NCBI GenBank assembly: GCA_000708835.1
Contig: DF237628.1
Span: 2,886 to 46,136, forward strand
Reading direction: 5' to 3'
From: Klebsormidium nitens
Taxonomy: Eukaryota > Plantae > Klebsormidiophyceae
Length of the DNA stretch: 43,251 nt
The position numbers and the translations under genes were made by a program. A model generated the notes under the pieces. It made no database searches. It was not told where the DNA came from and saw nothing but the letters and a program-made list of their open reading frames with translations. Shown one piece after another: positions 10,798 through 36,186 of the stretch. Position 1 is the first letter of the stretch; each line of letters begins with the position of its first letter.

Positions 10798-13225
10798 GTA
10801 AGTCTAAACCCTCAGAACACGTTTACTGATGCCCAATGTGATCACATGTTTATGCGAAGTGGAGACAGATTTTCTTTGTCAAATAGCACGTCGTTGTCTT
10901 CTCCATTGTGGACAGGGACGTCTTCAGGATCCGTTTCCACAAGATAGGTAACATAGGTAGGGAGAGAGCCCGGATCCCGGTCCTCGAAGTCGCCATCCTC
11001 TGCGAACCCCTCGAACAAGGGCGGCCAACCGTTTTTGCATCACCGCGCTTGCCTATCTGACGAAGGTCGTCGATCTGCCCAAGCTGCTTCACGGAGCAGT
11101 CTTGTCCTGTCGCAAAGCATTCGGTCGTTGCGGTCAAGCTGAGTCAGATTTGGCACCAGTACCAGCTGTTGCGGTTGGAGACATGAGATTCTGCCTTTCT
11201 TCAGATTAGCGCTTCTTTAAATACGATTCCCGCAGCCGCTGTATGTCTCCCAGCAGTGACACGGTCTGGTTTCTTTCGTGCAGGATGCCTCATCAGTGGA
11301 CCCTCGCCTGTGCCCCGGCGAGATTGTCGTCCACAGCGAGCACGACGGGAAGTTGCTGACCGTCAAGAAGGCCGAGCTAGGCACCTTCCTCTTCGCCAAG
11401 CGCAAGTTCGACGACAAGGTCGACTACCAGGACGCGAAGAACGGGCCGCAGGGTTGCTGCCGTCGTTACGGCGAAGTGCTCGGCCATCAGGTCGAGATCC
11501 GGCGCCTGCGTCCCTCCCGGGAGTTCGGGTCTTACCCGGATTGGCCCTCAGCCTATCCCAAACTGCGCGGCGAGCCTCATCTGGAGGAGGCCATCAAAGC
11601 GGGGTGTCCCTGCAAGCCGTACCTGGATCTGGAACGAGACGGGGGCCTGCCGGATGGGGAGACCCTCGAGACGGTCATTGACGCCTTCGAGGGGGCGATC
11701 ACGGGCATCTTCGAATCGGAATACGGCCAGGAGCTCTCAAAGGAAGCCTTCAACTGGATCCCCTGTGATTATGGGCCGGGTGGCAAGTTTAGCCTGCACC
11801 TGGTCATCTCCTCCCACTCCCCCCAGTTTGTCTACCGCTCCAACCTGGCGCCCCCAGCGGACCCCCAAGGAGCGGGGCATCTCGCGAGAAAGCTCAGCCA
11901 GCTCTTGCCCGACCGCTACGCCGAGCTCATCGATCAATCGGTCTACACCAGAAACCGGGGGATCCGACTCCCCTTCTGTTCCAAACCCTCTAATCCTCGC
12001 AGCCGCCTGATTCCCTTGGACGAGAGTAAGCCGTACGCGGATGCCTGCATCACCTGGTTCGATGACCACGTGCAAACGATCAATGTCCCCGACGTCCTGT
12101 TCCGAGCAGTGCGCTCTCGCGAGAGGCCAGAGAATTCAAGCCACCTAAACCCCAAAGCCGCGAGCATGTATGAGGTGCAGCGGTGCACGGAGCTCATCCA
12201 GAATCTGCACCCAACGGCGTACCGCAGGGGGTCGGCGAACTCGCTGAACTACAGCTGGCACGATCGGAGCGAGCCGTGCTACTCGGGTAACGTGCATGCC
12301 GGGGGGCGGGACATCCTCTGTGTCGCGGATCGCGAGAGGAACGCCGTGTTCGCGGTGTGCAGCAGCGAGCGGTTCGATCCGGAGACGGGTGTGTGCTGCA
12401 AGGACCTGCCGGCCAAGTACCTTGGGCCGTACTGGGTGGACAACAAGACCTGGAAGGATGGTGCTGTGGAGATCGACATGGAGTACTTGGATCGGGACCC
12501 GTTGGCTGCCGCACCCATGAATCTGGCGCTGATCCGCGCCGGGGTCAGTCCTCTGACCGACAAGGTCGTCTTCAACGACATCGTGAACAAGTGAGGCCGT
12601 GCACTCATGCTTACAAGCCGTCGACGTGGCAGTGTTGCAGTGTCGCTTTTGTCAGTGCCGCGAGTCTGGCCGCTGACCAGTCCCTCACTTGAAGATTCTG
12701 GTAAACGGGTCCACACCTTGTCGTAGGAATGAAAGAATCCAGGCTTTTGCCACTTGCAAGGTGTAGGCCAGGTGCTTTGTGGGTATTTCTACAAAGAAGC
12801 GGTTGCTGGGCCGATTTAGGAAAGGCTTGTGGGTATAAAATTGGCTTGAATGAGTGGCTGGAAAGTGCGAACGGGCCCACACATCGTTCTTGGGATCTAA
12901 GGAACACAGTCATTCATCACCGGCAAAATGTAGTCCACTCTGACGATGAGAACAGGCTGCTTGATCAGTCATGGAAGCAGCTTTGTGAATTTGGAGTGGC
13001 TGGAATAAGTGGCTGGAACGTTTGAACGGGCCCACACCTTGTCATTGGAATTAAGGAATCCGGTCTTTCGCCATTTGCAAGGTGTAGGCCACAGGCAAAC
13101 TAGACCGCACCACCGCGACTGGCAAAACTGACACATGGGTACGTGGGCACATGCCCCGCCTCTGGTCTACACCCTGTCATTGGATATAATGGATCCAGGC
13201 TTTTGCCTTTTGCAAGGTGTAGGCC
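4757..13225 (+). repeat. Family of about 17 co-oriented 60-62 bp palindromic repeats (GGYCYACACCYTG-N35-36-CAAGGTGTAGGCC)
   Basis: Copies start at 4757, 4879, 4977, 5409, 5542, 5681 (degenerate), 7875, 7997, 8441, 9265, 9374, 9831, 10376, 10500, 12708, 13029, 13164. Right-arm-only remnants lie near 8637 and 10033. The arms are 13-14 bp inverted repeats. Confidence 0.95.
11284..12590 (+). CDS. Archaeo-eukaryotic primase (AEP/PrimPol, NCLDV/herpes-like) exon of a primase-helicase fusion
   Basis: Motif I YLDLE, motif II FSLHLVI and motif III IDQSVYTRNRGIRLP, plus a Cys/His-rich C-terminal region. The ORF stop coincides with a donor (AACAA|GTGAGG at 12590/12591). Splicing to the acceptor at 13318/13319 is in frame (N-K-W-L-E-G-R-Y). 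Confidence 0.88.
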
Positions 13226-13318
13226 ATATGTGAGGACAGGGATTCTACCGTTTCACTTTTGCTGGTTGACCGGCTTCGAAAGATGGAATCAAGTGTTCTG
13301 TCTCACCCCTTCGTGCAG

Positions 13319-15457
13319 GTGGCTCGAGGGCCGGTACAAGGCTCTGCCGATCAGGAGTCCCATGGGGAGCGGCAAAAGCACGCTTCTCGCGGCTCTTCTC
13401 GCCGAGGTCTCCAGATTCAAGAAGGTCTGCATGATCACTTACCGCCGCACGCAAGCTCTCGATGCGGCGAGCAAGCACCAGGCGTTCTCCCACTACGAAG
13501 ATCTCAAGCAGGCGGATGGACGTATGCTCGGCGATCGCTTCATCCCCCCTCTCGCCGACCGGGAGCTCCATCCCCGCGTCATCGTCCAGCTCGACAGCCT
13601 GCCCGGGCTGATCCCTGAAGACGACGAAGACGCCCCCGCGTTTGACCTACTCGTTCTTGACGAGAGCGAGTCGATTCTGGCGCATTTCTCGGCGGACACG
13701 CTTCGCGAGAGGCACAGAGTCATTCAGCTCCTTGTCGAGATGATGAGAAGAGCGCGGCGGATCGTCTGTCTGGACGGGCACTTGGGGCAACGGACGTACG
13801 AGTTCCTCACGATGAACGAGATATCATACTCCCCCGTGGTGATCAACAAGCATGCTCCTGAGAGGCCCCTCGAGATTGAGTTCCTCCAGGGCAAGAACGA
13901 AGGGCTTGCCAAGTGGGAGGGGGCGATTTTCGAGGCGCTGGGGGCTGGTCGCAACGTCTTTGTTGCGAGCATGTCCTCGGAAAAAGCGCAAGAGTTGGGG
14001 GCGACGGTCGTGGAGCGGGGTCTCGTCGAGGGTGACCAGGTCCTCATCATAACTCGCCACTCGGACGGTGCAGTCAAACGAGGGCTGCAGGATGTGAACA
14101 GGCAGTGGCGGAAACGGCTCGTGATCATCAGCCCCACGGTCGAAGCAGGCGTGGATTTCAACCAGGACTGGTTCCATCAGATGTTCTTGTACGTCTGCCA
14201 GAAGAGTACGCACCCGCGGGGACTCGACCAGATGAAGGGGCGTGTTCGGAAGTTGGCGAATCCACGGGTCTTGTGTTATGTCCAGGAGGGCATCTGGCTG
14301 CCAGTCGAACCGGGGCCATCAGGGGGTGGGTCCTCGAGGGAGACGAGCAGGTCGGGTAGCAAGGCAAGGCTGGGGGTCGAAGAGACCTACCAGTGGTTCC
14401 TCAATCAGAATTGCAGGGGCGGGCTGAACTGTGTGCATCCGATAACCCGACTTCTCGCTCACAACGAGAAGGAGATCTTCAACGGGCAGACGCATTTCTG
14501 CGAGGAGTTCACAGACTTGCTGCAGGCGGACGGACACGTCATCGTCAAGAACGTTTGCGTTGACGAAGAGGCGGTCGAAGTGAACGCGGGCCCATCAGAA
14601 GAAGGGGGGCGTGGGGGCAAGTATCTTCTGGAAGAGATGATCAGCGCCCCAAACATCTCGCATGCCCAATTCGTCGACATCGAACGGCGTTCTCGAAAGT
14701 ACGAAGATCGCCCAGGGGAACCGTGCAGATGGAGAAATTTCAGCTAGCACGGTTCTACGACGTCCCGTACCTCAGCGAGGAGTTCTTGCGAACCTTCGGG
14801 CCGAAGCCGATCCATGCCCTCGACTTCCTGGAGCAGGTGGTCGACGAAGACTTCAAGTACGACAGAAACGAGATCGGGCGGCACATGTACCCGCCTCAGA
14901 TGACAGCCATGGCCAGGGAGCTCTTGACGGTCATGGGATTCGAGCACGCGCTCGATGCTGCCCACGAGACCGATACTCTTAGCACAATGAGATCGCGTCT
15001 GGCCGGAACGGCCTTCTTTCGGAATTACTCGGAGAACGTCAAGCTGTTCCATCATCGAGCAGCTAGCGTGTCTGACGTTCTGGTTTATCAGAAGACGGCC
15101 ACGATTGCTCTGAACCACGTCTTCTCGGCGTTAGGGTTGCATCTCGAGGCAAAGAAGCTCGGCAGATTGGAGGTGAGGGATGTGCAGAGGGCGGAGAATG
15201 GAAACCGGAAACGGCTGTACCGATACGGAGGCTGGTTCCTGTCGCGAGAACCTCTGCGGACGACTCGGCCCGTGCAAGGGCCCCCGGGGGTGAACCTGAT
15301 GTGCCAATTGTTCAAGCTTCGTCTGGCGGATTCGGAGACTCTCAGGGAGAGGGTTCCGCCGGCTCTGCGGGAGTACTTGGACGGGATTCCGTTCCAGTGG
15401 CCGGAACTCGTCCAGCACAGGAGATGTGGTATTATTGTGGGTCCAGGAGAGGAGTAG
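13319..15457 (+). pseudogene. UL9-like replication origin-binding SF2 helicase exon, with one apparent frameshift at about 14720
   Basis: SPMGSGKST (Walker A), ITYRR, LLVLDESES (Walker B), IISPTVEAGVDF and DQMKGRVR are motifs typical of herpes UL9/NCLDV origin-binding proteins. The reading frame shifts at GAA CCG TG CAG ATG, continuing as QMEKFQLARFY to the stop at 15457. Confidence 0.82.
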
Positions 15458-15518
15458 AATGTCGTCGACAAGAACCCAAGTCTGAAATGCAAGTCAAGTG
15501 ATTATAGGCTACCCTGTA

Positions 15519-15825
15519 GTCCGCACGTTGCAAATGATATTTGGCGATACTTTCTTGGGAATTGTGGATGGTGTAAAGTATTGGGGATGGTGTGGATCAA
15601 CTTTATAGCTTGCTTGTTGTCTTGTATCATTGTAGTCTTGTTGGTGGTACTCACAATAATCGGTCGTCCTGTGCTGTAGTTGATGATAGGAGATGCGCAT
15701 TCATACAATGATTTCTGCTTGCCTTTTGCCTTTGTTGGCAGCAACTATAACAGGGGTTTGCTTGTGGTCTATACTGTGCAAGTCGTCTAGGACTAAATCC
15801 TAACAATCAATTGCAACGTGTGGAC
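15519..15825. repeat. 15-bp inverted repeat pair flanking a 277-bp spacer; arms related to the 62-bp palindrome family
   Basis: GTCCGCACGTTGCAA at 15519-15533 and TTGCAACGTGTGGAC at 15811-15825, with 1 mismatch. Confidence 0.7.
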
Positions 15826-16141
15826 CGTATTGTGCAATTAACAATGCCGCATGCAAATGGCTTGGTTTTGCAGACTTGCCGCCTAAAGACTGAAGTCGCT
15901 GTATGGTGGTAGCAACTCTCGGAGCCTATTTGAGCACATTAAATTACCCTCTTTCGCGGAATCGCATGCCGGGATATGATGAATGTAGGCTAGATGGTGG
16001 TAGTCTTTGAGCATGAATCCACCGCATGTGCGAGGAATAGCACTATGAACCCGAGCCTATACATGGCACTTGTAAAAGCGGTTTGATTGTATACATGGGC
16101 CATCGTCCACTTAAGCGAACGAGAGACCGGACTCTCTGCAA

Positions 16142-16657
16142 TCAATCCGAGTCTGAGTCTGAATTAGAATCAACCGATTCTGCCTTCTTTGCTTGGGCAG
16201 GCTTCTTTCCGGCGGTATTTGTTTTGGGCTTCTGAGTGGCTTTACTCAACTTCGAAAACTTCTTCGGAGACTTCATACTTTCGATATCTTCAATCTCCAT
16301 CTTTGTAGCTATACTCTGAAAGGTGCCCTCGAATGGCAGACCTGTTGGGCGATTACTTTTCTTCACCGGACCGATCTCGACCGAGTATCCATATTTCTTG
16401 TTCAAGGAACCTCGTGTGGTCTCCTGTATAAGGACAACTACCCTCTGTGGAAGAGAAACCTGTTTCCCCTGACATTTCTGCGTTCGAAACAGTTGAGATC
16501 CCGCTCGGGCCCCTGCTTGACAGACGCGCCCCTTCTTTGCATCGATTTCAAGTCGCGTATCCTTCAACAGAGCAAGGGCATCATTCCCCTTCGAATCGTA
16601 GGCAGCAATCACCCGAAAGCTTCGTTTCGTGGATTCCATATTGGATGTTTGGTGCAT
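16142..16657 (-). CDS. MC1-like non-histone DNA-bending protein (archaeal MC1 / giant-virus MC1-like family) with Lys-rich and acidic tail
   Basis: KRSFRVI..YDSKGND, CQAGARAG, VVLIQETTRGSLNKKYGY and SNRPTGLP align by eye with the MC1 pattern (RNFVLRDEDGNE / PRQAALKAA / IRLRE / KNRPAWMP) and with the viral ETTRGS..K.Y.Y variant. Confidence 0.72.
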   Translation of the reverse strand: MHQTSNMESTKRSFRVIAAYDSKGNDALALLKDTRLEIDAKKGRVCQAGARAGSQLFRTQKCQGKQVSLPQRVVVLIQETTRGSLNKKYGYSVEIGPVKKSNRPTGLPFEGTFQSIATKMEIEDIESMKSPKKFSKLSKATQKPKTNTAGKKPAQAKKAESVDSNSDSDSD

Positions 16658-16811
16658 TTCTAATGATAAGTTCGTAGAAAATAATAATCCCGCCCCCTAA
16701 TGCATATCTGACCATGCGGATTTAACAATCCCCGCTGCAAGCGATGATATATAGTGCATATGGAGTGAAACGCATGCGGAGAAACAAAGAAAAAGTGTCA
16801 AGTGCGTTTTA

Positions 16812-17008: not shown

Positions 17009-17867
17009 ATGGATACTCTACGAAAGGTCTTAGCTGATGGGATTAGGACCGAAAGTTCCACAGAGCAGTATCTCAAAGGGATTCAGCTTCTATGGAATAT
17101 GGTTTTCGAGGATAAAATGCCCGAGGACCCCTCGTGGATAAAGAGCAAGGCTCAGAGTATCGTTGCAGCCGTTCTAGAGCGCTATGATAATCCTGGAAGC
17201 AGGCGTACTCGTTTAGCCCCTTTTCTTGCTCTTTGTCGCAGACTCGGTTATGCGGAGGCTTACCAAACCTACTATGAGCCGTTTCGGAAGGAAAACAAGG
17301 CTCTTGTCTGAAGGAGTCCGCTCAACGAAAGATTGAGACTAAGACCTCGGATGCCACATCGGAGATGACCGTTGAAGAGGTCGAAACACTTGGAAAGAAG
17401 CTTGCACGCAAGGTTAGACAGTTGAGTCTCGAGGACATGAATCGAGATCTCACTCCTAAGGAGGTGAAGATCTGCATGTGGCATCTCGTCCTCGAATGGC
17501 ATATGCTCTTGAGTAAGGAGCATCGTCGTCGGTTTAAATTGCACGAGCTTCCAATCCTGCGGAAGGGCCAACAGATCGGGGGTGCGAACTATTTGCTGCA
17601 GACCTCACGACGCAAGGGAGATTACAAACTCGTCTTCGAAGCCGGGGATCGAATCCCTCTTACAAAGATGCTAAGCAAGTATCTTCATCGAACCCTTCGA
17701 TTGATACCTCGAGATTCCTTCTTGACTTCGATCACTCAGCCGCAGACGGCTATGTCCGCTAGTAACTGGTCCATGTTCATGAGTAAGATCCAGTACAATG
17801 GAAAGCGCTTCATTCCAGATCGACTCTAATACGTTCGTATCTTACAAAAAATATCTGTGAAGATTAG
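17009..17867 (+). pseudogene. Frameshifted, truncated paralog of the adjacent tyrosine recombinase
   Basis: ORFs 17009-17311 and 17365-17829 join through a frameshift (KENKAL / LKESAQRKIE). Similarities to the intact YR: RTLRLIPRDSFL vs RSFNLIPRKYL, SNWSMFMSKI vs SNFTVVLNDL, and a frameshifted LIRSYLT vs LLRHISH. It ends before the catalytic GH...Y segment. Confidence 0.68.
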
Positions 17868-17891
17868 TAACAACGAGGCGGTTTCACGGCG

Positions 17892-18935
17892 ATGGAGTCC
17901 AACTTCGAAGCAGAGGTACGCAGAAAACTGAAGGTCCAATCTCCGGATAAGGCTCTCCGTGGAGCTCCGCCAAACAGATCAGATTCAACAGTGTCTGTCT
18001 ACATCAGGCAACTTAAAACCGTATATGCGGCTGGAGACTTTGGACCGGACGTGATGAACGGTCTCGACTGGATCGAGGACCACGAGCATGTGATTTCAAC
18101 CATAGAGAGTCTCACGTCGCGTGACGGCAAGCTTCTTAGATCATTGACGAAGAGTAATTATGCAGCCCCTTTTGCTATTCTTGCTTCTGGAGAGACGCAA
18201 TCAGCTTACTCGAAGTACATGCAGAGGATGAAGCCAACCGAGGAGGAGCTCGATCATTCTATGCAGAGGAAGACGCCGAAAGAAGTCGACAATTGGATTC
18301 CTTGGTCCGAAGTCTTAGAGAAGCGATCGGAACTTGATGACAAGATCAGTCGCTATGTCGTGCCAAGATTCCATAAGAAGGAACGCTTAGATCGCCATGA
18401 TAAGCAGCTGGTGATGGACCATCTGATCCTTTCCCTCTACACGATGCCGCTAGGACCTCTACGGAATGAGTACGCGGAATGCATTTTTTTGATGAGGGAA
18501 CACGAAAACGATTGCGTTGCGATCAAACCGGGTGACATCAACGTCGTCGAGTTGAACGACGATCCCAAGAAGTGTTTCTTTCACATTGGTCGACACAAGA
18601 CTCTCGAAAAGGATGGCGTTCGTTGCCTTGAAATTCCCGAAGATCTCGTAAAGGTTATACTCAGATCCTTCAATCTGATTCCTCGAAAATACTTGATTCT
18701 CAAGAGGCATTATCTCGTCTGGAAAGATGAACCGATATCGAATTTCACCGTAGTTCTCAATGATCTTGGTCAGCGCCATTTCGGTAGAAACCTCAGCTGC
18801 ACTTTGCTTCGACACATCTCACATACTGAACAGAGTCCGAAGTTGATGTCCCGTGGTGAAGTGAGAGCAAAGGCGCAATACATGGGCCATAGCATGAGGA
18901 CTGCGGATGAATTGTATAACAGACGATTCGAGTGA
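17892..18935 (+). CDS. Tyrosine recombinase/integrase, Polinton-like virus/NCLDV type, 347 aa, intact
   Basis: Catalytic set: R in PLRNEY, K in GRHKT, R in TLLRH (first His of HxxR replaced), H in YMGHS and Y in ELYNR. The N-terminal core-binding region contains STVSVYIRQLK. Confidence 0.88.
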   Translation: MESNFEAEVRRKLKVQSPDKALRGAPPNRSDSTVSVYIRQLKTVYAAGDFGPDVMNGLDWIEDHEHVISTIESLTSRDGKLLRSLTKSNYAAPFAILASGETQSAYSKYMQRMKPTEEELDHSMQRKTPKEVDNWIPWSEVLEKRSELDDKISRYVVPRFHKKERLDRHDKQLVMDHLILSLYTMPLGPLRNEYAECIFLMREHENDCVAIKPGDINVVELNDDPKKCFFHIGRHKTLEKDGVRCLEIPEDLVKVILRSFNLIPRKYLILKRHYLVWKDEPISNFTVVLNDLGQRHFGRNLSCTLLRHISHTEQSPKLMSRGEVRAKAQYMGHSMRTADELYNRRFE

Positions 18936-19384: not shown

Positions 19385-21390
19385 ATGACAACGGGTTCGA
19401 TTGCCAGTGTGTTGGAAGCATATGCACAAGAAGGGTTGTACGCTGTCCCCGCAAACGTGAGAGCAAAGGACGGATTGAAGCACATTATAACGATGCCTCA
19501 TACAAGAGGCGATGACGCTATAAGATCGGCCTCTGATTGGAGAGCGGCGGGAGGCCGGATTACGCAATTCATTGAAAAAGAACGATACAACTTTCTGGCT
19601 GTCAAGACGGGGGCCATTTCGGACATCTTCGTGCTCGATATTGATGTACGAGACAAACCGGAGAAAGATCTTCTAGCTGGCATGCCACTCTGGAACGAAC
19701 CGATTGCTGAGCACGGAGAGCCAGACACCTTGAAGGCCGTTTCTGCTAGCGGAGGCTTTCACTACTATTTTTCATATGGTTGTTCCATTAGAGATGGGCT
19801 TCAATCAGGAAAATGTTTTGCTGGAATTGATTACAAGGAGCATTACTTTGGCATAGACGCACGTGGAGATGGGGGCATCGTTCTGGCTCCACCGGGCTCA
19901 CCTGGAATCGGGTTGAGTTATACATGGTGTTCGAAACCCATAAGAAGCAGCATCAGAAGCGCTCCATCATGGCTAATCAAATTTCTCAATGATTCAACCG
20001 GGAGGTCTTTCAAGAGGAGTCTCGCGTCGGCCTGCAACAAGATCCAAGAGCAAGCAGTGGACGGCTCCGAGCTCGAGCAAACAAGGGGGCTCGAATCGAG
20101 CACCGTTGAAGAAGATATGCAAGTAGAGGTGGATATCAATGTCCCCCACAATACACAATCACTTGAGCACGAGAAGATTGCTGACGCTATGTTGAATCTA
20201 CTACAAGACGCTGGGCTCGCCACGAATGTTCGATTTTCTGGCAATGTGACCTTCCGTGGTCCGTACGGTATGCTCTATTCATTCATCTGTGACGGTCCCA
20301 GAACATGCATCCATGGCCATCATCATAACGGTAGCAACAATCTGACTCTTGTGAAGCGAGGGTGGAAGATCTTCTACCGTTGCTTTGGCAACGATTGCAC
20401 AGACAAGCCTCTCACGGAGCTTGGAAATATTCCAATATCGATCTCATTGTTGGATGCCAATCCAGTACGCTTGCACCCCACTCATGATTGGAGTACCTTT
20501 CCAAATAATATAAAAACGTTGTCAAACGATGCTGTGGAAGCACAGATGACACTCATTAGGCGGAACATGACGCAACGCTACCGCGGACTAGCGGCAATCT
20601 TCTCAGCTATATGTCTCGTTGACGGACGCGTCATCGCCGAGGGGAAGTCCTTTCAATACTGGAACGGTCGTCGGTGGATCATCGACAACGCGTTCCATAT
20701 ACAAGCCGTGTTTAGTAACCACATGGCTCGTATTATACACTGGTATTCGAACCAGAGACTGAATGCTTTCAAGCGAGAGATTTGTGCACATATAAGAGGC
20801 TCTGCAACACGGCATAATGCTTCGTCGACGATAGAATCAGCCCTTCCAGACTGGGCATTTGATCCAACTACCGATGAAGAAAGAAAAGCATGCAGTACCG
20901 CATGGAGGGTAGTCAACAAAACGTATCCTTTCCCAGCAAAAAGCGATCTGGTGGATCTAACACGGGGATCTGAGATCCGTGTGTGCCTCGAATTCGTCAT
21001 GAATTCCTTGCAAGCTCCTCAATCTCTGAGCGAGCTGATAAAAATTGCCAATCCGTTATTGTTCGCCTGCGCTAACGGTGTCATAGACACCCAAACGGGA
21101 AAGTTGCTCGCCTTTCATCCTGCTCATCTGTGTTCACGTGCGTCGAAAGCGACTTTCCGCGGAATGCCAAAGGCCGGAAGCCGATTTGAGAGGTTTTTGC
21201 TTGATTGTTTCAACGATGACAAAGAAGTTCTCGAATGGTATCAGCTCTTCTGCGGCTATTGCATGACCGCGGACATGAGCGAGCAGATTTTTCTTGTCAA
21301 ACAAGGCGCCGGATCTAATGGCAAGTCGTTGACAAAACTGGCAAGTCTCGAAGTTCTTGGGAGCTACGCTGTTGTTATGTCCGACGATTG
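19385..21390 (+). pseudogene. 5' part of a bifunctional Prim-Pol + D5-like SF3 primase-helicase, interrupted by the KDZ transposon
   Basis: Prim-Pol motifs AVKTG, FVLDIDV, SGGFHYYF and IDARGDGGIVLAPP. D5_N motifs FQYWNGRRW and FACANGVIDTQTG. Walker A GAGSNGKS. The frame breaks right after GACGATTG. Confidence 0.9.
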
Positions 21391-21540
21391 GAGTACACAT
21401 TAATGGCGGGCGTGAATACCAAAAAGGTGTCTTTCTGAAGTCATTCTGGAGGCATTCACGTGAACTTCTTTTACTCCCTGAATGAAAGGGTGCGCAGGCA
21501 GCTATACTCACCTGCCATCCTCTTCGACCATTCCCATGCC

Positions 21541-22730
21541 TTCAAACATTCAGGATTCAGATACGGTCTGAATCCGCCATGAATGAATGCATGTAAGTGC
21601 GCTCGANNNNNNNNNNNNNNNNNNNNNNNNNNNNNNNNNNNNNNNNNNNNNNNNNNNNNNNNNNNNNNNNNNNNNNNNNNNNNNNNNNNNNNNNNNNNNN
21701 NNNNNNNNNNNNNNNNNNNNNNNNNNNNNNNNNNNNNNNNNNNNNNNNNNNNNNNNNNNNNNNNNNNNNNNNNNNNNNNNNNNNNNNNNNNNNNNNNNNN
21801 NNNNNNNNNNNNNNNNNNNNNNNNNNNNNNNNNNNNNNNNNNNNNNNNNNNNNNNNNNNNNNNNNNNNNNNNNNNNNNNNNNNNNNNNNNNNNNNNNNNN
21901 NNNNNNNNNNNNNNNNNNNNNNNNNNNNNNNNNNNNNNNNNNNNNNNNNNNNNNNNNNNNNNNNNNNNNNNNNNNNNNNNNNNNNNNNNNNNNNNNNNNN
22001 NNNNNNNNNNNNNNNNNNNNNNNNNNNNNNNNNNNNNNNNNNNNNNNNNNNNNNNNNNNNNNNNNNNNNNNNNNNNNNNNNNNNNNNNNNNNNNNNNNNN
22101 NNNNNNNNNNNNNNNNNNNNNNNNNNNNNNNNNNNNNNNNNNNNNNNNNNNNNNNNNNNNNNNNNNNNNNNNNNNNNNNNNNNNNNNNNNNNNNNNNNNN
22201 NNNNNNNNNNNNNNNNNNNNNNNNNNNNNNNNNNNNNNNNNNNNNNNNNNNNNNNNNNNNNNNNNNNNNNNNNNNNNNNNNNNNNNNNNNNNNNNNNNNN
22301 NNNNNNNNNNNNNNNNNCTCGAACCACATAAGTGCCCAGTGTCCCAGCTCGTATGCTTTCAAACATTCAGGATTCAGGTACGGCCTGAATCCGCCATGAA
22401 TGAACGCATGTAAGTACGCTCGCTGCACACTTGAAGTGCCCAGAGTTCAACTCATGCGCCTTCAAACATTCAGGATTCAGGTACGGTCTGAATCCGCCAT
22501 GAATGAACGCATGTAAGCGGGCTCGAACCACACAAGTGCCCAGTGTCCCAGCTCATGCGCCTTCAAACATTCAGGATTCAGGTACGGCCTGAATGCGGCG
22601 TGAATGAATGAATGAGTCCAAGTGCGCTCGCTGCACACAAGTGCCCCGAGTCCCGGGTCGCATGCCTTCAAACATTCAGGATTCAGGTACGGTCTGAATC
22701 CGGCATGAATGAATGCATCTGAGAGTTGCT
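21541..22730 (+). repeat. Left subterminal tandem array (unit about 103 bp) with GGATTCAG-N7-CTGAATCC palindromes
   Basis: TTCAAACATTCAGGATTCAG recurs at 21541, 22358, 22461, 22562 and 22667. The array spans the N gap. Confidence 0.9.
21607..22317. other. Assembly gap (711 N)
   Basis: Run of N flanked on both sides by the same tandem repeat unit. Confidence 1.
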
Positions 22731-27400: not shown

Positions 27401-28056
27401 TGATGACATGTGTCATCTTGCGCGGTTCATACTCTCCGGGGAGAGGACCGCTGTTTGCCCCAAAGCGGCGGAGTTCGCAAGGGTCAAAGCAGTGGGTAAG
27501 TAGCACCCTAGGAGCAGTGCAACTCTGATTCGGCAAATGCTCAATACGCTAGGATCCCAACAGTGCATCGCTTGCATGGGCATCGCTTGTAGAGGAACAT
27601 AGGCTGTTCGAAAACCCTAACAGCAGGAGGCATTCCATGTTGCAGTCGACAAATTCCACTTCGACAAGAACCACGTGGGGAAGTGGTGCAAGGAGCACGT
27701 GAACCCGCACCACCATCCAGAGCTCACGAAAGCAAACATGAGCATCTGTGAGCAGCGTTTCAGCTGGTTCGGGAAGTACAAGCACATACTCAGGTAAGAG
27801 TCTGCGAAGCGAGCGCAGAGAGTCATTGACAGAATTAAGGACACGTCTGTGATCAGCACAGCTACTTCTGTCCTGAAGCACCTTGTCTTGAAGTACAGAG
27901 GAAATGCACGACCAACTGCAACCTCCTAGAACCTTCTTATGCAGGAAGATGAACGAGCACCGGTTCCACTTCCTGCTCCTGATTCTGTGCCAGATTGACC
28001 ACATCCAGCGGGACCGCGACCTAGCGCTGCGACGTGCAGCAATCTTATCAGCTTAG
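24469..28056 (+). CDS. Multi-exon KDZ transposase with CxC clusters and an inserted chromodomain
   Basis: CxC5-like KCFSC...FCPKCGAVYHLNFF; HVDGQAKCVRAVC (first Asp); CTHTP...FCKLH; chromodomain YNVERVIKSRIRNG|KEEFWTKWEGESVCTWETEENL; RTAG...ACG...ESSTQV; VGFDDMCHL (second Asp); VDKFHFDKNH...WC; NMSICEQRFSWF (Glu); final exon KMNEHRFHFLL to the stop at 28056. GT-AG junctions are consistent where checked. Confidence 0.9.
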
Positions 28057-28117
28057 ATAACTTCTATATCAGGCGAGGACTCAGAAACTCCGTGCTTCTC
28101 AGGAACCAGCTTCTTCG

Positions 28118-30604
28118 TTGGCGTTGAAAGGAGCACCCCTGCAAGCAGTCAATCTGAAGCTGAGTCAGAAATCTCAAAGTGCAGCAACAGCTAAGAATCC
28201 TTGCCAGATTGCCTTCTCAAAGAATTCTTCATGTCCTTGCAGATCAGCAGCACCAAGGATTCAACAGAATTGCTTTTGCAACAACGGCTTAGAAGGTGAG
28301 CTCACACTTCATTCCTCATGTGGTCCACCCTGCTCGGTAGGTAGTCTTGGAAGGTAAGCTGGTTGCAGCCGGTTGCAAAGAGTCAGGTACTCGGACGGGC
28401 AGCTGGGGATGATCTTGCGGAAGAGGTCGTTTGGACGAACCATGCCCGGAAGGGTGCCAGCCTCTGTAGACCCGAAGAAGTGTGTGTCGTCGTCATCGTG
28501 AGAAGAAAGGTGATCCCAGAGGCGGATGATGTCCTGCTTCTTGCCAAACGTCTTCTTGCTCACGACCGCAGTGATGTTGATGACCTCGTCCTTGAAGGTC
28601 TGGAAGAAGCGCTTGATGCAGAGCTGCTCTTCGCTCTGCAGAAGATTCGAAATAGGCAATCAGCGAGTTTGCAGATTTGAGTTTGCCTCAGATGCTTCAG
28701 TACATTTGTGGAATTCTTGCTAAAGGTTTTCCCCTGTTCTCGCAGATAAGTGACTTACCAAGACATCCCCTGAATTGAGCCGCCCTCGCCTGGACCCGTC
28801 GTCGTCCCCACTGTCCTCATCCAGGTCAGGAAGTTCCCACTCCCAGAACTCATTGCAGAATCGGATCATGCTCTCGTCACCCTCGAACAGAACACGCTGC
28901 TTCAGCACCAGCTGCGAAATCTTGATTGCACAGTCCATGGCCTCGCTGCTGATTTCAAGCATCTCGTCTCTAGGGTCGAGCGAGTCGCCGGTTTCTGGAT
29001 TCTCAGCCTCCTTGAGCATGACGACAAGGATGTGCAGAGCAGCTGCGATCTGGAGAGCTTCTCCTTTCACTTTACCGAAGACTCCTGCACGTTAAACATA
29101 AGCAGCAGGGTCAAGAAAACCACCGTTAACCTCAGGATATGAACCCCTCGTTTCTTCTGATCTGACCCCTTACTTAGCGATCAAGATTCTGCGCTGCTTT
29201 TGTCTTGGTCCTTACCTGCTTTCGAGAACATGGAGTTGCTCGCTAACTCCGCGAGAAAGTCCTGGACTTTGTCGAAGAAGCTGGCGTGCATCTTGTAGGC
29301 TTCACCACGCACCACAAAGGCGCGTTTCAGAGCTGCTCCGGTATCAATGTTGTGCGCAAAGTCAAATATGAAGAGGAATACCTGGAGAGACCACATGACA
29401 ATGCCTTTGTTTGACCTGCACTTTATCTTTGTTTCAAATCAAAAGCAAACACGAAGTTCCAGGTCATTAGATTCGTCAACAGTCATGCGTGTCGAAGTAA
29501 ATTCGTACCTTCATGAGCAAGTCATCGAAGTCGGTGATGGTCTTTCTCCAATCGTCGCCGCTGATTTTGAGTTTGTCTGCAGGATAACCATATGAATACG
29601 TCAACTTCAAGCTCCTCCAATATTGCGTTGCACTTTTGGACATCTCAATCAAGATACTTCCTGCTCGATGGACAGGCAGTCTTTCGAAAACAAAGAGCGA
29701 GGTGAGAAACGTCTTACCTAAGTGCTCAAACACGCCAGGAATGAACGTGATCAAGAACCGGTTTAGCAAACCGTCCTTCGGAGTCTTGAAGAGCTCGACA
29801 CTGAGCGGCTGAGGCTGCATGTAGCCCGAAGGGATGAAGTGCGTAAAAGGAATGCTTGAATTTGGTCGGCCAACAGTCTCCCTGTCCCATGACGAACCCC
29901 CCTTCAGTGAGAGTATCTGCGTTCGGTCTCCTTCTCCCTTCTTGTAACCGTCCATCCAGGCGAAGAAGTAGCCGAATTCCTCAAGAAACATCATTCGGGC
30001 ATGGTTGACGTCATGTTTCAGCTCCTGGAATAACGCCTCCAGAGTCGCCTGTAAACGAGTTACAATATTTCAGAGAATTGCGTGGGACATTTTCCTGATG
30101 CGAGATGATCAATTCTAGAATTGGCAACCAGTGGAGTTGCAACGAAGGACAGCAATAAATGATCGGACAGAAATGGCTGGAACTCACACTTTTAGCAAAG
30201 AAACTGAATGGTTTGATTTCTTCGTCCTCGTCCTTGTCCTCAAGAGCTTTCGTTTTGATCCTCTCGTTGATCTTCGTTTCGACTGCAGTAGCAATCTGCT
30301 TCAGCTTCTTGAACGCAGGAGTCTTTCCGATGGCGCTGTACGCTACAATGATACACCACAGGAGCAGGCGCTCCTCCCATTCGTGTCCCTCAACTTCGAC
30401 AGTGGCATGCGGACCAAGCAAAAGACAGGTGAGGCTCAAGATTGGCAAGAACAGATGCCAGGATGACAGACTCGCACGGCGGCAGAAAGACTCGCACAGC
30501 GCATAGAGTTTCTCAGGCACACACTCCTTCAGCGCCTCTTCTGTTGCAACGGAACTTGCTTGTCGCATCGCCTTATCAACCGCGGCGTCCGAGGTCCTCG
30601 CCAT
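28118..30604 (-). CDS. Multi-exon DUF3987 (YfjI-like) P-loop NTPase/helicase
   Basis: LLWCIIVAYSAIGKT (Walker A variant), MFLEEF (Walker B), DRTQILSL.GGSSWDRET, GYMQP and DGLLNRFL match the DUF3987 signature. The 3' end is approximate. Confidence 0.75.
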
Positions 30605-30960
30605 GTTGCAAGCCACAAAGAAGCCGTTCAAAACAGTGAAAGCGATTCTCGAAATGACAAAATCTGCAAGTCAGGCTCCCCTTTTGTACCCAGGACTCGG
30701 TTGCCAGTCTTCCTTGGCAGTCTGGCTTTAACAACACTAGTCAGACTGCTTTCGACGAACAGCGTGTTTCGAACCTGGAATTCCATCGAAATCGAATCGG
30801 GAATGAACATCGGCATCGACATCGAATGGCAGGATTCAGCTGAACGCAAAGCTTTGCAAGTCAAGTCTGGTTGGTTGAGGCTTGAAGAATCAAAGTAGGT
30901 TTGATCCGCGTCAATTGTTCTTCGCAGAAGGATTGTAAAACAGCAACAATCTCAGCGCCA

Positions 30961-33900
30961 ATGGCGCAAACAGGCGCTGTGCGCAAATCCTTCTGGATGA
31001 GATTTCCAAGGCAGGCCGCAATGCTCAAAGCATGGGAAAAGTGCGGACACGATAACGCCAAGCCGTTTGCATCACAGGATCACCAAACGGGAACATACAG
31101 CTATATTCTCACCACGTACGACGAGATCTGGGCCAGGGCCCTCGGTCGATACTTCCCGACAGGCACAAGGCACCTGTATGAGCTCATCCACGAGGTAAGA
31201 ATGCTCTAACGAATAGGCTTCTGACACGTGTCTTTCCAATCTTGAAAATACCAGAAACTTACGTTATTTACGTACTTGTGCAGGGCTCCTCTGTTCATCT
31301 GTACATCGACTTCGAGTTCGACCCCACCCTAAATCCCAACCGGAATCCGGATGCTATGGTCGATGCTCTGCTAGAGGTGATCGCCAGGCTACTATACGAC
31401 ACATACGATGCACAGATTGACGAGGGGGGGATCGTCGAGTTAGACGCATCCTGGTCAGGTGAGATGCTAATAACCAAAAGTCTCGTTTTTCTTGTCTTGT
31501 ATGTTCTAAAGCTGCCAGACTATCAGGGTTCGAGGAGTCTCGTGTTTCGTCCTGCTATCGGATCATTTGCTCCCTTCCTTTTAATGCCAGCAGACAGACT
31601 TTTGGAACAAGGACTGTACTCTTGCTTTCTAGTCTGCTCAGGTGCTTTATTAGGGTTCTAAGGGCTGGATGTGTGTTCTTGTACTACACTCAAACATTTT
31701 CTGCATATTCTGCATTCTCTGCACTCTGATCGAATGCTTTCATTCATTTCCTTGCAGTCAGAAGTGAAATTGCATGTCTTCTGAAACGGTCTTGACCATC
31801 AGGGTTCGAAATGGCCATGTCTTTCTGTTTCTTGAATGCCGGCAGACGGTCTCCTGGTACAAAATCTGTACTCTCTCTTTTAAGCGTTTTCGTGCGCACT
31901 ATCAGGGTTCGAGGTGTCGTGTTTGTCATACTCTGCTACACTCACAAATTGAGCGTTCAGTCATTTCTTTGCAGCACAGCAGAGAAGTTACCTGTCTGTT
32001 ACCTTTCGCTTATGTTCTAAAGCTGCCAGAATATCAGGGTTCGAGGGGTCTCGTGTTTCTTCCTACTAACAGATCCTTTGCTCTCCCTTCAATACCAGCA
32101 GACAGACTTCTTCAACAAAGACAGTACTCTCGCTTTCCAATCTGCGCTCGTGCATTATCAGGATTCTAGGGGCTGAATGTGTGTTGCTGTCACTACACTA
32201 ACACAATCTCTACATATTCTGCCTTTTCTGCACTCTGAATGCATTCATACATTTCGTTGCAGTCAAAATTGAACTTGCATGTCCCCTGCTCTTCTTCCAA
32301 AGCTGCCTGACCATCAGGGTTCCAAATGGCCATGTCTTTCTGTTTCTTGAATGCCGGCAGCCGGTCTTCTGGTACAAAATCTGTACTCTCTCTTTTAGGT
32401 ATTTTCTTGCGCACTATCAGGGTTCGAGGGGTTGTGTGTGTGCTGCTGCGCTGCGCCCCACGGATTGAACATTCATTTATTTCCTTGCAGGAAAGATCTC
32501 GAGGCACATTGTGGTACATCTAAAAGACTGCGTGTTTTCCGACAACTCCTATCATCTGAAATGGTTCATGAACAAGAAGGTGAGATCGCCACAATGAAGT
32601 CACATCTCAAGATGTTACTTTCTAAACGGTTTCCTGGACAGATACCGTTGCCTTTTTCTACAGAAAAGCGCAATATCAGGTGAACATATATGCTTGTGTC
32701 ACGTGCTCGCAGGTCGTTGATTACATTCTCAGCAAGCGCGACAGCGACGAGCTGTGCACAATCCTGTTCGTCAACAAACGGAACGGAGACACATCGTACA
32801 CTGGCTTGTGCTTTGACACAGCCGTATACAGCCGCAACCGCCTCTTTCGCCTTGTATACTCGACGAAGCACAATCGGTCTGAACAATTCATTCCGACTCA
32901 CCGACGCAGGCCTTCACAGGTGATCACAGGGCTCGATGCACCCCAAAACTCAAAGATTCTTACATTCACATATCTTCGAGCAAGGCTTGTCCAGATCCTG
33001 GCCGCTTGTACATGCTGACAACCAGCTCACTGTCCTCTCTCTTTCCATACAGGGCCCGATGGAAGATTTTTTCGCCACACTCGTCTGCAATACAAACGAT
33101 GAAGCACGCCAGCTGGAGTGCCCTCGGATGGTAAGCGAAGCATCTGCCGCTTGCAGCACAAATCTTACATCCTCCTTCGCTTCTAGGTTCAATTCTGTCA
33201 GCGTCAACCCCATAAACCGTCCAGTACTTTCTGAATCCCACTCCGGGGGTGTGCGTGCGGTGGTTCGTGAATACATTCACTTGTTAAATTGCAGGCCCTC
33301 CCCTTCCGTTCTCCTAGCTCGAGACCCAACTACCAGCACGAAGATTCAACGGCAACTTACAGGGAGCTCTCAGAGTACGTCAAGGCCGTTGCTTCACAGA
33401 ACGGTCGACAGGGTGAGCATTGATAACGTGACTCATAGATTGACATACAGCCAGTCTCTCAGCTTGCAGCTCTGAATTGAAGAACAATCGGTTTTAGGGT
33501 TTCAGAACTAGAAACCCTAAAACCCTAAATGGAACATTCGGTTGCTCAAGGGTTCTCCGCTTACGAAAACTCGTTAAGATTTGGTGTTGAGATTTCTCTG
33601 CCATTCTGGAGTCCGGACATCAATCTTCCCAACATCAAGCTCATTTCGCTCTGTCTTGATTGCAGCCTGCATACGCGACATGAAAGTGTGAAGATTTCTC
33701 TGCCAATCTGGAGTCCGCACATGATCAATCTTCCGCAACATCAAGCTCATTTCGTTCTGTCTTAACTGCAGCCTTCATACGCGCCATGAAAGTGTACAAC
33801 GGGATCATCTCCTACGAGATTGCCGGCAACCACTATTGCGCCAACATCGGACGTGAACATACCAGGAATAACGGTGAGCCAATTCTCACAAGCCTCTTCT

Positions 33901-34367
33901 CTTAAAAGCCTTCATAGCACACTGTCCTGGGACGCTTTGGCATTCGTGTTGTAAGCAGCATCAAACGCTGTTCCTTAAGAACTTCAGCAACCGATTAGTC
34001 AGACAGCCCCTCTGTTTGCAGTGTACTATGTGGCGGACCTGCGCAGCGAAGAGTGCACCCTAACACAAAAGTGTCACGACTCTTACAGCTGCGACGGTGA
34101 GACAAACCGGCTCATGACTCGATATTTACCAGCAGCAAATCGATGATTCCCGGATCGATCAGCGTCGCTGCAAGCTCTAGAACTCTGAAGTTGTCAAAAG
34201 CGTAAATGCGGAAACGTGCAAGTCCTGCCTGAAGTTCGTTCTTGCTTTCAGGTTACCGGTCACCACCGCTACACATCCCCCACGCCATCGCGAAAGTTAC
34301 AAGAGAGCATCTCCAGAAAGCAAACGACGGTGCGTATGCGGGCCTGCTCTTCGTTTTCGAGGGCTGA
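30961..34367 (+). CDS. PRIMPOL: Multi-exon PRIMPOL-like primase-polymerase carried by the transposon
   Basis: RHLYELIHE|GSSVHLYIDFEF (motif I DxE), KISRH (motif II SxH), FDTAVYSRNRLFRL (motif III) and FFATLVCN. UL52-type Zn finger YCANIGREHTRNN|VYYVADL...QKCHDSYSCD|GYRSPPLHIP. Exons were read across GT-AG junctions. It may not be the host ortholog. Confidence 0.88.
31499..32490. repeat. Tandem duplication (period about 512 bp) inside PRIMPOL intron 2, with nested ATCAGGGTTC repeats
   Basis: TATGTTCTAAAGCTGCCAGA occurs at about 31500 and 32012. GGCCATGTCTTTCTGTTTCTTGAATGCCGGCAG occurs twice. ATCAGGGTTC occurs six times. Confidence 0.85.
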
Positions 34368-34744
34368 CACTGCTATCGTAACCACGCGGGCCTTCAATTG
34401 GCCAGCTTCAGTGAAGCTGCTGATTGTTCTGTCCATGCTTGCTGCCTTACTCATGCAACGTATCCCCTGCAAAAATGTGTCGGATCAGTAAGAAAGCAAT
34501 CTTTCACTGCAGGTCATGACGCTGGCGAAAGCCAGTCAGGCGACGACCAATGGGACTCAGAGTTTTCGAGTCTTGCTGTTGCTCTACTGGACAGGGTGTC
34601 AAAAAGAGTTTCTAGATCAGCCAACAGTCCGCAGCTGCCAAATTTGTTTGCAGCAATGGACGTGTAAGGGAGAGACGCATCTTGTATAGATTTGCTCTCG
34701 TGAGTAGAAAATGGCAAAACATGGTGTCCAGTATTCACAATCGG

Positions 34745-35295
34745 TTCATTCAGGCTTCACGTGAATCCTGAATGAATGAACCCCTAGCTCCACAGAGTAG
34801 GTGGCTCCTGATCTTATCCACGTCGATTTTTGAATAGTGATACGATCATTCAGGTTTGCTTCATTCAGGCTTCACGTGAATCCTGAATGAATGAACCCCT
34901 AGCTCCGCAGAGTAGGTGGCTCCTGATCTTATCCACGTTGATTTTGAATAGTGATACGATCATTCAGGTTCGCTTCATTCAGGCTTCACGTGAATCCTGA
35001 ATGAATGAATCACCGCGTGGGAGTATGACGACAATATTACTAGCCATAGCCGAAAGTGTAGAAACGACCATTCATGTCCCATTCATTCACGATTCATTCA
35101 GGCATCACGTGAATCCCGACTGAATGCCGATTGCATGAATGAATATGCTGTTCATTCACGATTCATTCAGGCATCACGTGAATCCTGAATGCCGATTGCA
35201 TGAAGCAATGAATGACACTGACGTAGAGGTTCAAATTGAAGTGATCCATGTTCAATTCATTCATGAATCGTTCAAAGTTCACCTGAATCCTGAAG
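34745..35295. repeat. Right subterminal palindromic repeats of the KDZ transposon
   Basis: The near-perfect 32-bp palindrome TTCATTCAGGCTTCACGTGAATCCTGAATGAA occurs at 34745, 34860 and 34974 (period about 115 bp), with variant copies from 35090 to 35295. Confidence 0.9.
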
Positions 35296-35354
35296 TGTCA
35301 ATGAACGTTCAGAAACGGAATTCAGAGCAGCCATTAATTAATAGTGGACGATTG

Positions 35355-36186
35355 CATTATCGAGGCGGGAAAAAGATCGGCTGGCTCAGCTTCGAGCCAC
35401 ATCATGGCTCTTCGGGGCGGGCGGCTCGCAGAAACCGATGAATCGGGTGAGAAAGCGGTCTTGAACGAGGCTGCGATGAAAGCTGTATCGGCAAGGGGAA
35501 AAGCCACAGCACGCGAGCTGCAATGCAGACAAGAGACATTCGAGCTTACCGCGAAGCCCGTCCTCAATACCAACTACCGGCCTATTCTTCAGAACGTGTC
35601 CTATTGTGTTACCCGACGCTTGGCACTCCTCCCGATGCTAGTCACTTTTTTACCTCCTCACAAATTCGACCCTGGGAAACCGCGCCAAAAGCTCATTGAC
35701 ACAACACTTGAAACCTATCTGACAAGTGACCAGGGGCGGGACGAAGGTCTTTCTTGGTATACACAGGGGGCGAAACGTTATCATGACCTGAAGCGAGCAA
35801 ATCCAAACACGTTACCACTGATGCGCCGTCCGCGTGTTATGGAGGAAGCTGTCAAAGCATACATCAACGATTCAGACATTGCCACGCGGTTGATCGCTGA
35901 TTGTCTTGAATTCGAAGACATTCAATCCGGAGAAAAAGCAGAATGGCACTTAGCGGTTGGTGAACGGCTTGGAGAAGCCTTTCGAACTTGGTTGAAGGAA
36001 GAAGACCTACACAGCGCGTTGTCGGCAACGCAGCTGAAAAAGCGCATTCTGGAGTATGCTGAGGGGAAAAATCGGATAGTCAAGGACGGGCAATTTACGG
36101 ATAGCCAGGTACAATATCCAGGACAGTTTAAAGGCCTTTCGGGGGTTCGACTAGTGCCTGGCCGCGAGTCCAACGCGTTGGAGTAG
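35355..36186 (+). pseudogene. 3' part of the interrupted D5-like SF3 helicase
   Basis: LRGGRLAETDE (Walker B), ARELQ, PVLNTNYRP (motif C) and TRRLALLP. It is in frame with 19385-21390 after excision, giving a 945-aa product. Confidence 0.9.

Follow-up and report, generated by a model that had tools for sequence, protein, structure and literature searches.

The 43,251-nt stretch of DNA analysed here (the window) contains an interval of ~25 kb, 11284..36186, that a preliminary description took for a single capsid-less integrating element carrying a tyrosine recombinase (YR) and two distinct primase-helicases. We find that this interval is a mosaic of three primase-bearing units rather than one element: a multi-exon gene that joins an archaeo-eukaryotic primase (AEP) to an OBP-type helicase (unit 1), a YR gene followed by a Prim-Pol-D5 primase-helicase gene (unit 2), and a 13,956-bp transposon bearing terminal inverted repeats (TIRs) that splits the D5 gene (unit 3). 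On balance, we consider it probable that the multi-exon AEP-OBP gene lies beside a likely capsid-less YR/Prim-Pol-D5 replicon of ~8 kb, whose D5 gene was split by the TIR transposon. The firm parts of this reading are what the genes are, the joining of the AEP-OBP exons in frame, the insertion together with a target-site duplication (TSD) and its TIRs, the repeated pairing of YR and D5 on contigs of four matching sizes, and a window in which capsid, packaging ATPase and PolB genes are unrecognised. The impression that one capsid-less element holds two primase-helicases is an artefact that arises from taking a nested mosaic for a single unit.

The window looks eukaryotic, with fragmented open reading frames (ORFs), a 711-N assembly gap at 21607-22317, and hairpin repeats resembling miniature inverted-repeat transposable elements (MITEs) that are dense between 4.7 and 13.3 kb. 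Several of its proteins have their nearest named relatives in the streptophyte alga Klebsormidium nitens, with identities of 64-76%. The base composition changes within the interval, from a GC content of 0.58 over 11-15 kb, in the AEP-OBP part, to 0.47 over 15-21 kb, in the YR-D5 part.

The nesting can be read directly from the D5 gene, which is interrupted at 21390/35347. The ORF at 19274-21403(+) matches Prim-Pol (4.9e-12) and D5_N (7.2e-12) in Pfam, in agreement with the preliminary identification of a Prim-Pol plus D5 protein, and stops directly past the Walker A motif; a second ORF, 35338-36186, resumes with the Walker B region. The 5' part of this Prim-Pol-D5_N-SF3 helicase gene thus delimited (19385..21390, +; Pfam and alignment A2) ends right past GAGSNGKS, and the 3' part (35355..36186, +; 81% identity to the relative P0020) runs from a Walker B-like AETDESGE to the stop codon. 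Across the junction, the sequence in intact D5 homologues (931-971 aa) is VVMSEDCIIEAGKRSAG (in a shorter excerpt, VVMSEDCIIEAGK), and the window reads VVMSDD|WSTH* at the left junction and LIV|DDCIIEAGKRSAG, beginning DDCIIEAGK, at the right one. An 8-bp TSD, GACGATTG, is present at 21383..21390 and again at 35347..35354, with both copies in the same codon phase of the D5 frame, and deleting 21391-35346 together with one TSD copy restores an open 945-aa D5 ORF from the first Met. The preliminary description overlooked this split: of the 25 kb, 14 are part of a different element, which has a third primase and a further helicase.

That element, the insertion at 21391..35346, includes the N gap and is bounded by imperfect 30-nt TIRs, in which 20 of 30 nt agree and a 9-nt core, ATTAATGGC, is perfect. 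Tandem repeats of ~105-115 nt occupy subterminal positions, at 21528-22739 and, in inverted orientation, at 34713-35296. An intact TSD and half-ORFs that are still open suggest that the insertion is not ancient. Its candidate transposase gene is a set of Cys-rich ORFs (24424..26401, +) for which the ESM Atlas provides a lead only: 18 of 30 matches lie in CxC5-bearing clusters and others in CxC4 clusters, which are KDZ-associated, with a top score of 0.97. Pfam gave no match to a KDZ transposase or CxC family on any ORF of the insertion, and blastp of the Cys-rich ORFs against the long ORFs at 37.7-41.7 kb found none at E ≤ 0.01. The replication genes on board are a DUF3987-type helicase in two ORF pieces (29476..30670, -; PF13148 at 2.4e-07, with 30.7 bits against a cut-off of 27, and at 7.3e-04) and a third AEP primase (31182..33475, +), interrupted by a ~1.1-kb gap filled with repeats. 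This primase is recognised by the hidden Markov model (HMM) of the AEP domain described below, at 32626-33015 (3.2e-9) and 31182-31658 (2e-4), with repeats D9, D13 and D18 in between, and belongs to the same family as the AEP of unit 1. Elsewhere in the insertion, the segment 23100-24100 has a GC content of 0.59, ORFs overlapping on both strands, and 54-nt repeats at a spacing of 77-78 nt, and is probably low-complexity, non-coding DNA.

Unit 1 is a multi-exon gene (9515..15856, +; stop codon at 14747) traced by contigs from two runs, X6 and X9, which were placed on positions 9000-21600. These contigs span 9.4-15.86 kb, end at 15849-15856, and contain GT..AG joints at 9674>10130, 10306>10633, 10797>11284 and 12590>13319; the donors read GTAAGT or GTGAGG and the acceptors finish with CAG. 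Position 11284, where the element had been taken to start, is an exon start of this gene. The joint 12590>13319 removes 728 nt and fuses the AEP exon (11284..12590, +) and the SF2 helicase exon (13319..14747, +) into an open 920-aa frame. To either side of this gap the window aligns with P0036, a K. nitens protein whose residues 1211-1675 cover 13317-14720 (tblastn), and the intron position is common to AEP-OBP paralogues that are only 70% identical. The kinds of the two runs were guessed by the tool, X6 as RNA and X9 as DNA, with none of the runs found to contain the sequence being registered as RNA, and X9 has the same profile as X6; over the AEP-OBP gene, the contigs of both appear to be transcripts.

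The preliminary assignment of this region to an AEP and an SF2 helicase of the OBP type is borne out. The helicase ORF, 13104-14747(+), matches Herpes_ori_bp, a UL9-like family (PF02399), at 3.2e-21. The AEP ORF, 11260-12594(+), has no match in Pfam; a HMMER search of 1.84 billion representatives returned 182 relatives at E ≤ 1e-3, most of them ~1050-1160 aa long, and the HMM of these relatives recognises the AEP exon at 8.8e-183. In most relatives the AEP domain lies N-terminal to Herpes_ori_bp, and among the 18 that were scanned, Herpes_ori_bp was found in 16, PriCT_2 in three, and a weak, sub-threshold match to DNA_primase_S in one. The same order within one protein is seen in the 920-aa frame and in P0036. 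The AEP ORF contains DLE, SLHLV and YTRNRGIRLPFCSK, which we take to be AEP motifs I-III.

This HMM of the AEP domain, made from 159 aligned relative rows, also detected 21 loci on viral contigs, among them giant-virus metagenome-assembled genomes and contigs measuring 150 kb to 1.15 Mb. The fusion partner of the domain in these loci is an OBP-type helicase (seven loci) or a D5-type helicase (9-10 loci). Because it is found in giant-virus contigs in these fusions, the unit 1 domain is assigned to a giant-virus type of AEP. We propose that unit 1 would be a giant-virus-type primase-helicase gene that has long resided in the host, as its introns, its paralogues and its apparently transcribed contigs suggest.

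Repeats run through this gene and its upstream region. The MITE-like hairpin family (~67-104 nt, up to 19 copies in 4700-13261 of the window) has the ends GGTCCACACCTTG...CAAGGTGTAGGCCA, and three hairpin repeats of family D2 (12704-12770, 13025-13091 and 13160-13226) lie within the 12591..13318 intron, so that MITEs may have helped to build or enlarge the introns. A second repeat, a unit of 165-199 nt, occurs in five copies (starting at 5118, 8135, 9523, 10155 and 10646, within 5096-10822), each of which terminates in GAAGAT|GTAAGT. Since the last three copies are exons joined in the run contigs, the N-terminus of the AEP-OBP protein seems to consist of repeated exons, possibly from ~5 kb onwards. 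At the other end of the gene, the last part of the helicase ORF is overlapped by an ORF of 297 aa in another frame, 14564-15457(+), which falls within the contigs reaching ~15856. Diverged X6 and X9 contigs with 1-nt indels at 14693-14719 point to a possible frame shift, in this copy or in the gene models, with respect to a longer C-terminal domain.

Unit 1 also differs from its neighbour in the company that its relatives keep. The closest relatives of AEP-OBP are on contigs of 13302, 12033 and 61232 bp, which differ from the contigs of the YR and D5 relatives, and the K. nitens homologues of AEP-OBP, D5 and the small ORF of unit 2 are spread over five different scaffolds, those of D5 and the small ORF being on contigs of 13723, 105864 and 12514 bp. 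Summed contig depth in sample X1 is 35-95 over the AEP-OBP gene, as opposed to 212-437 over 16157-19103. The differences in GC, introns, depth and contigs of relatives speak against the claim that one element bears both primase-helicases. Co-occurrence of the genes at other loci had been set beforehand as a check, and by this check that claim fails: AEP-OBP was seen with YR-D5 nowhere outside the window, as judged from the sizes of the relatives' contigs. YR itself recurs with Prim-Pol-D5 on four contig sizes.

Unit 2 is centred on an intact YR gene encoding 347 aa from its ATG (17892..18935, +). Its ORF, 17871-18935, matches no YR family in Pfam (Phage_integrase or related) even at E ≤ 10, and in the PDB there is no match by sequence and none by profile at E ≤ 1. 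Its identification is based on the predicted fold. In a Foldseek search of the PDB with the AlphaFold2 model (AF2; pLDDT 61), the top 18 rows are taken up by XerH, Cre and XerA, and Flp and Tn1549 Int appear lower; the best is XerH at E = 1.8e-3, with probabilities of 0.97-0.99 and TM scores of ~0.35-0.38, as obtained with a weak model. The same model has 13 matches at E ≤ 1e-3 in a viral structure library; they come from algal and protist giant viruses and include two entries with the name integrase or Tyr recombinase, and the next match is a Qinghai Lake virophage protein at 2.3e-3. In alignment A1 (the YR and 12 relatives), K243, R314 and H315 are invariant and R198 nearly so, and close relatives keep a GHS motif as well as a Tyr close to their C-terminal end, all of which we presume to be catalytic. 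The ORF is thus predicted to have the catalytic-domain fold of tyrosine recombinases, as the preliminary description had proposed.

Distant relatives of this YR number 97 in viral contigs, mostly of 17-30 kb and several from virophages, at 20-28% identity; the metagenome scan returned such distant YRs only, with close relatives not among them. Four of the six sampled viral YR loci carry virophage capsid genes, namely Sputnik-type major capsid protein (MCP) and penton (Pfam). Single-protein scans of the viral contigs, with the YR or the D5 as query, gave no relative. One contig with a distant YR, L001 (= L024), is virophage-like and 20.3 kb long, and encodes an A32-type ATPase, a YR of the window's family, a Tet_JBP dioxygenase, a TET-associated glycosyltransferase and a lipase, as well as a Herpes_ori_bp helicase protein of >875 aa, so that DNA-modification genes are aboard a small eukaryotic virus.

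The D5 protein points elsewhere. It has 94 viral relatives, and 80 loci were kept; a virophage MCP was found in one of these 80 and a YR of the unit 2 family in none, and the three best loci lie on contigs of tailed phages, which have terminase and portal genes. The D5 relative P0020 is listed by one source as 'P4 family phage/plasmid primase-like'. A virophage locus, L075, nevertheless carries a gene with Prim-Pol, PriCT_2 and D5_N, and its D5 protein aligns to 35389-35670 of the window. The YR and the D5 of unit 2 differ in kin, the former being related to virophages and giant viruses and the latter to tailed phages.

Two further ORFs accompany these genes. The small ORF at 16142..16696 (-), with nine relatives at 57-89% identity, encodes a beta-rich N-terminal part and a Lys-rich tail with an acidic end; its product may bind DNA. 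The label 'MC1' that it had been given found no backing: Pfam has no MC1 match for it at E ≤ 10, the PDB none by sequence or profile, the top 50 Foldseek matches contain no MC1 (best E = 0.53, with a weak model of pLDDT 60 that consists mainly of beta strands and has no long helix), and the ESM Atlas gave no usable match. ORF183 (17278..17829, +; no Pfam match), directly upstream of the YR gene, resembles the central part of the YR non-significantly (hhalign E = 0.17; RIPLTKMLSKYLHRTLRLIPRD against CLEIPEDLVKVILRSFNLIPRK), and may be either a remnant or a YR-like partner protein.

That YR and Prim-Pol-D5 form a multi-copy module is indicated by their recurrence. The YR has 17 clusters of close relatives (46-92% identity) and the D5 has 10, and relatives of both occur on the same four longest-contig sizes, 54068, 91093, 8654 and 10087 bp. 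Small-ORF relatives include one at 54068 bp, the size common to YR and D5, and one at 31246 bp, a size common to another YR relative. Summed contig depth in X1 rises from ~24 in the two preceding, unique-looking bins (15.3-16.2 kb) to the values given above for 16157-19103, where it is also high in a second sample, X5. The YR and D5 ORFs are unbroken except for the insertion. Contigs of X6 and X9 do not cover 16157-21600 (at most 0.8) and were not used as evidence.

The left limit of unit 2, as set by contigs, lies between 15856 and ~16157. Past the D5 stop codon, 1.2 kb of low-GC DNA is followed, from 37.7 kb, by GC-rich long ORFs without Pfam matches. If limits of ~16.1 and 37.4 kb are right, unit 2 without the insertion measures ~8 kb. 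Just 3' of the D5 stop are two 124-nt palindromic repeats of family D14 (36367-36490 and 36606-36729; 92% identity, DNA fold z = -4.47) with inverted ends of ~26 nt, which could be MITEs or a cis-acting site such as an origin or a recombination site.

The preliminary statement that capsid, packaging ATPase and PolB genes are unrecognisable in the window is upheld. All 198 stop-to-stop ORFs of at least 85 aa in the 43 kb were scanned against Pfam, and none matched a capsid, A32/FtsK ATPase or PolB family, including Sputnik_MCP_1st, MCP_V20_C, V18-19 and Capsid_NCLDV. With tblastn, three virophage MCPs and three pentons had a best E of 0.34 against the window, one A32 ATPase a best E of 0.73, and one Ulp1 protease a best E of 2.8. 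Pfam is able to detect virophage capsids, as the Sputnik MCP and penton domains in the viral YR loci demonstrate. Within the window there is, accordingly, neither the double jelly-roll MCP and penton nor the A32/FtsK ATPase and maturation protease of virophages and of the polinton-like viruses (PLVs), and from the core set of Nucleocytoviricota (NCLDV MCP, PolB, A32, VLTF3 and primase-helicase) only genes of the primase-helicase type are present in the 43 kb. The proposed capsid-less integrative element therefore remains plausible in a smaller form, as a YR and primase-helicase element of ~8 kb, from which the AEP-OBP gene is excluded. As such, the YR and Prim-Pol-D5 module is plausibly a narrower, still undescribed, small capsid-less element; a full-text literature search, covering listings, abstracts and some passages, found no capsid-less YR and Prim-Pol-D5 element described in algae.

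Several observations weigh against the combination of a spliced gene and a replicon of ~8 kb. The kinds of X6 and X9 are guesses, and a DNA origin of X9 would make the joined form an intron-less copy and not a transcript. The co-occurrence of YR, D5 and small ORF is deduced from equal contig sizes. According to the tool's own warning, summed contig depth is no copy number, and in X1 it drops to 28-130 over the D5 part (19104-21208), so that many copies may hold the YR part only. At the ends of unit 2, blastn (word size 8, E ≤ 5) found no repeat linking 15.5-16.4 kb with 36.15-37.75 kb, and there is no tRNA gene in the window; unit 2 could extend past ~37.7 kb or past the window. Finally, relatives of YR and of AEP (with or without helicase) are found together on two viral contigs, L001/L024 and L033/L186, with distant YRs, and for this reason the adjacency of units 1 and 2 could be a relic of one ancestral virus.

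Some of these points bear on three other explanations. Unit 2 might be what is left of a larger endogenous insert, from a virophage, a PLV or a giant virus, with its morphogenetic genes deleted or situated past the second transposon or the window end. We regard this as unlikely, although the YR family occurs in virophage contigs with Sputnik-type MCP and penton (the four of six loci scanned), L075 combines Prim-Pol, PriCT_2 and D5_N in a virophage, the best viral matches of the YR model are giant-virus proteins and one virophage protein, and unit 2 may run on to the right, the window stopping 7 kb past D5. Against such a remnant, no signal of capsid, ATPase, protease or PolB appears across the 43 kb, the contigs of another gene, with their 3' end, bound the left side within ~300 nt, two of the YR and D5 relatives are on contigs of just 8.7 and 10.1 kb, and the closest viral relatives of D5 are in tailed phages, with the near absence of virophage MCP and the complete absence of a unit 2-type YR among the 80 loci.

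More doubtful still is an identity of the multi-copy unit with a ~3-kb, Crypton-like YR transposon made of the small ORF, ORF183 and YR, to which Prim-Pol-D5 would be a neighbour or occasional passenger. The fall in summed depth at 19104 and the greater number of close relatives for YR (17) than for D5 (10) or the small ORF (9) are what such a transposon would lead one to expect, and Cryptons are named as YR-encoding DNA transposons in the passages of PMC12220804 consulted. The four contig sizes common to YR and D5, two of them under 10.1 kb, nonetheless tie the two genes together, and on the 54068-bp contig the D5 relative is more diverged than the YR relative (77% against 92% identity), such that an 85% nucleotide threshold would under-count D5 copies. 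The view of the preliminary description, one integrated element comprising AEP-OBP, Prim-Pol-D5 and YR, we consider very improbable. The genes are neighbours on the same strand, and the two viral contigs that pair YR with AEP show that such company exists; the two parts are nevertheless unlike in GC (0.58 against 0.47), introns and MITE-like repeats occur in unit 1 and neither in unit 2, the exons of unit 1 extend upstream to 9.5 kb or beyond, the contigs of the relatives mismatch and the K. nitens homologues are scattered over five scaffolds, and the AEP-OBP intron position is shared by paralogues as distant as 70% identity.

Under the reading that we prefer, a spliced AEP-OBP gene next to a replicon interrupted by a transposon, unit 2 would likely excise as a circle and reintegrate via its YR without target duplication. 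It may replicate as an episome, with Prim-Pol-D5 priming and unwinding the DNA for polymerases of the host or of a helper virus, and its small basic protein may bind the element's DNA. Lacking a capsid of its own, it would spread vertically, through reintegration, or by hitch-hiking with a virus. The present copy is probably dead, its helicase having been severed between the two Walker motifs, A and B, by the Zisupton/KDZ-like transposon.

Outside the three units, two GC-rich ORFs of 448 and 501 aa, 37737-39083(-) and 40192-41697(-), have no Pfam match; the second has cysteine patterns of the CxC/CxH type, and the pair looks to us, presumably, like a further DNA-transposase gene. The unit to which these ORFs at 37.7-41.7 kb belong may conceal the right end of the YR-D5 module. 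Near the start of the window, ORF 961-1353(-) has a P-loop region with a weak nSTAND3/AAA_16 match (1.2e-05, below the curated cut-off) and may be part of a STAND/NLR-like host gene.

If the YR and Prim-Pol-D5 module is complete, eukaryotic genomes would host plasmid-like, self-priming, capsid-free integrative elements. Such an element would be built from virophage or giant-virus genes and phage or plasmid genes, and would be intermediate among Cryptons, virophages and transpovirons. In an alga closely related to land plants, the locus would also present a giant-virus-type primase-helicase turned into a spliced, multi-copy cellular gene, and it documents a large TIR transposon carrying replication genes. 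Viral primases would thereby have entered a single 25-kb stretch by three unrelated routes. The practical lesson is that nested insertions and introns should be mapped before a run of viral replication genes is called one provirus.

The comparison with known systems differs from unit to unit, and the YR and AEP families are both present in giant-virus and virophage contigs. Unit 1 has the same AEP domain as the giant-virus proteins in which AEP is fused to a UL9/OBP-like SF2 or a D5-like SF3 helicase; it departs from them in its introns, its repeated upstream exons, its ~70%-identical K. nitens paralogues and its setting in cellular DNA. The insertion resembles Zisupton/KDZ elements in its 8-bp TSD with TIRs and in the CxC5/CxC4-like cysteine cluster to which the ESM Atlas lead points, and differs from them in having no KDZ domain that Pfam recognises. 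According to the passages of PMC12730594 consulted, Zisupton has 8-bp TSDs, as hAT usually has, and KDZ elements have passengers, TET/JBP genes for example; neither the AEP primase nor the DUF3987 helicase is named there among them. The insertion is thus a candidate Zisupton/KDZ-like element, with a TSD length that fits Zisupton and hAT alike and is equally hAT-like.

Unit 2 shares its YR family with Sputnik-type virophages and YR-encoding PLVs, some of which (L075) also have a primase-helicase with Prim-Pol, PriCT_2 and D5_N. Virophages and PLVs integrate into eukaryotic genomes through their YR and leave no TSD, as stated in the part of PMC12220804 consulted. Unlike them, the window has no MCP, penton, A32 ATPase or protease, the apparent length is ~8 kb as opposed to 17-30 kb, and YR identity is 20-28%. 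Cryptons are likewise YR-encoding, capsid-less, multi-copy DNA elements without TIRs or an obvious TSD, a likeness drawn from their description. To our knowledge, Cryptons carry no primase-helicase, and unit 2 differs from them in its Prim-Pol-D5. Transpovirons, capsid-less, helicase-encoding DNA elements of the giant-virus world, are ~7 kb long and linear, with long TIRs and no YR. Unit 2 is similarly small, capsid-less and helicase-encoding, by the general description of transpovirons, and is set apart by its YR and by flanks in which no long terminal inverted repeats surround it.

A YR integrase paired with Prim-Pol/D5 defines P4-like elements. Unit 2 has this two-gene core, again with no capsid gene, in common with P4-like satellites and prokaryotic integrative plasmids. 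It differs from them in its eukaryotic setting, with spliced neighbours and eukaryotic transposons, and in its YR, which is not of the Pfam Phage_integrase type and groups with giant-virus and virophage YRs. A further joint proposal, which we put forward tentatively and at less than even odds, is that streptophyte algae related to Klebsormidium harbour a family of capsid-less replicon-transposons of ~8 kb, and that the insertion in this copy is a Zisupton/KDZ-like element with its own genes for a giant-virus-type AEP primase and a DUF3987 helicase. Each replicon would then combine a virophage/giant-virus-type YR, a phage/plasmid-type Prim-Pol-D5 and a lineage-specific small basic protein, and would correspond, in eukaryotes, to the P4-like satellites and integrative plasmids of prokaryotes; giant-virus or virophage particles may serve it as a vehicle.

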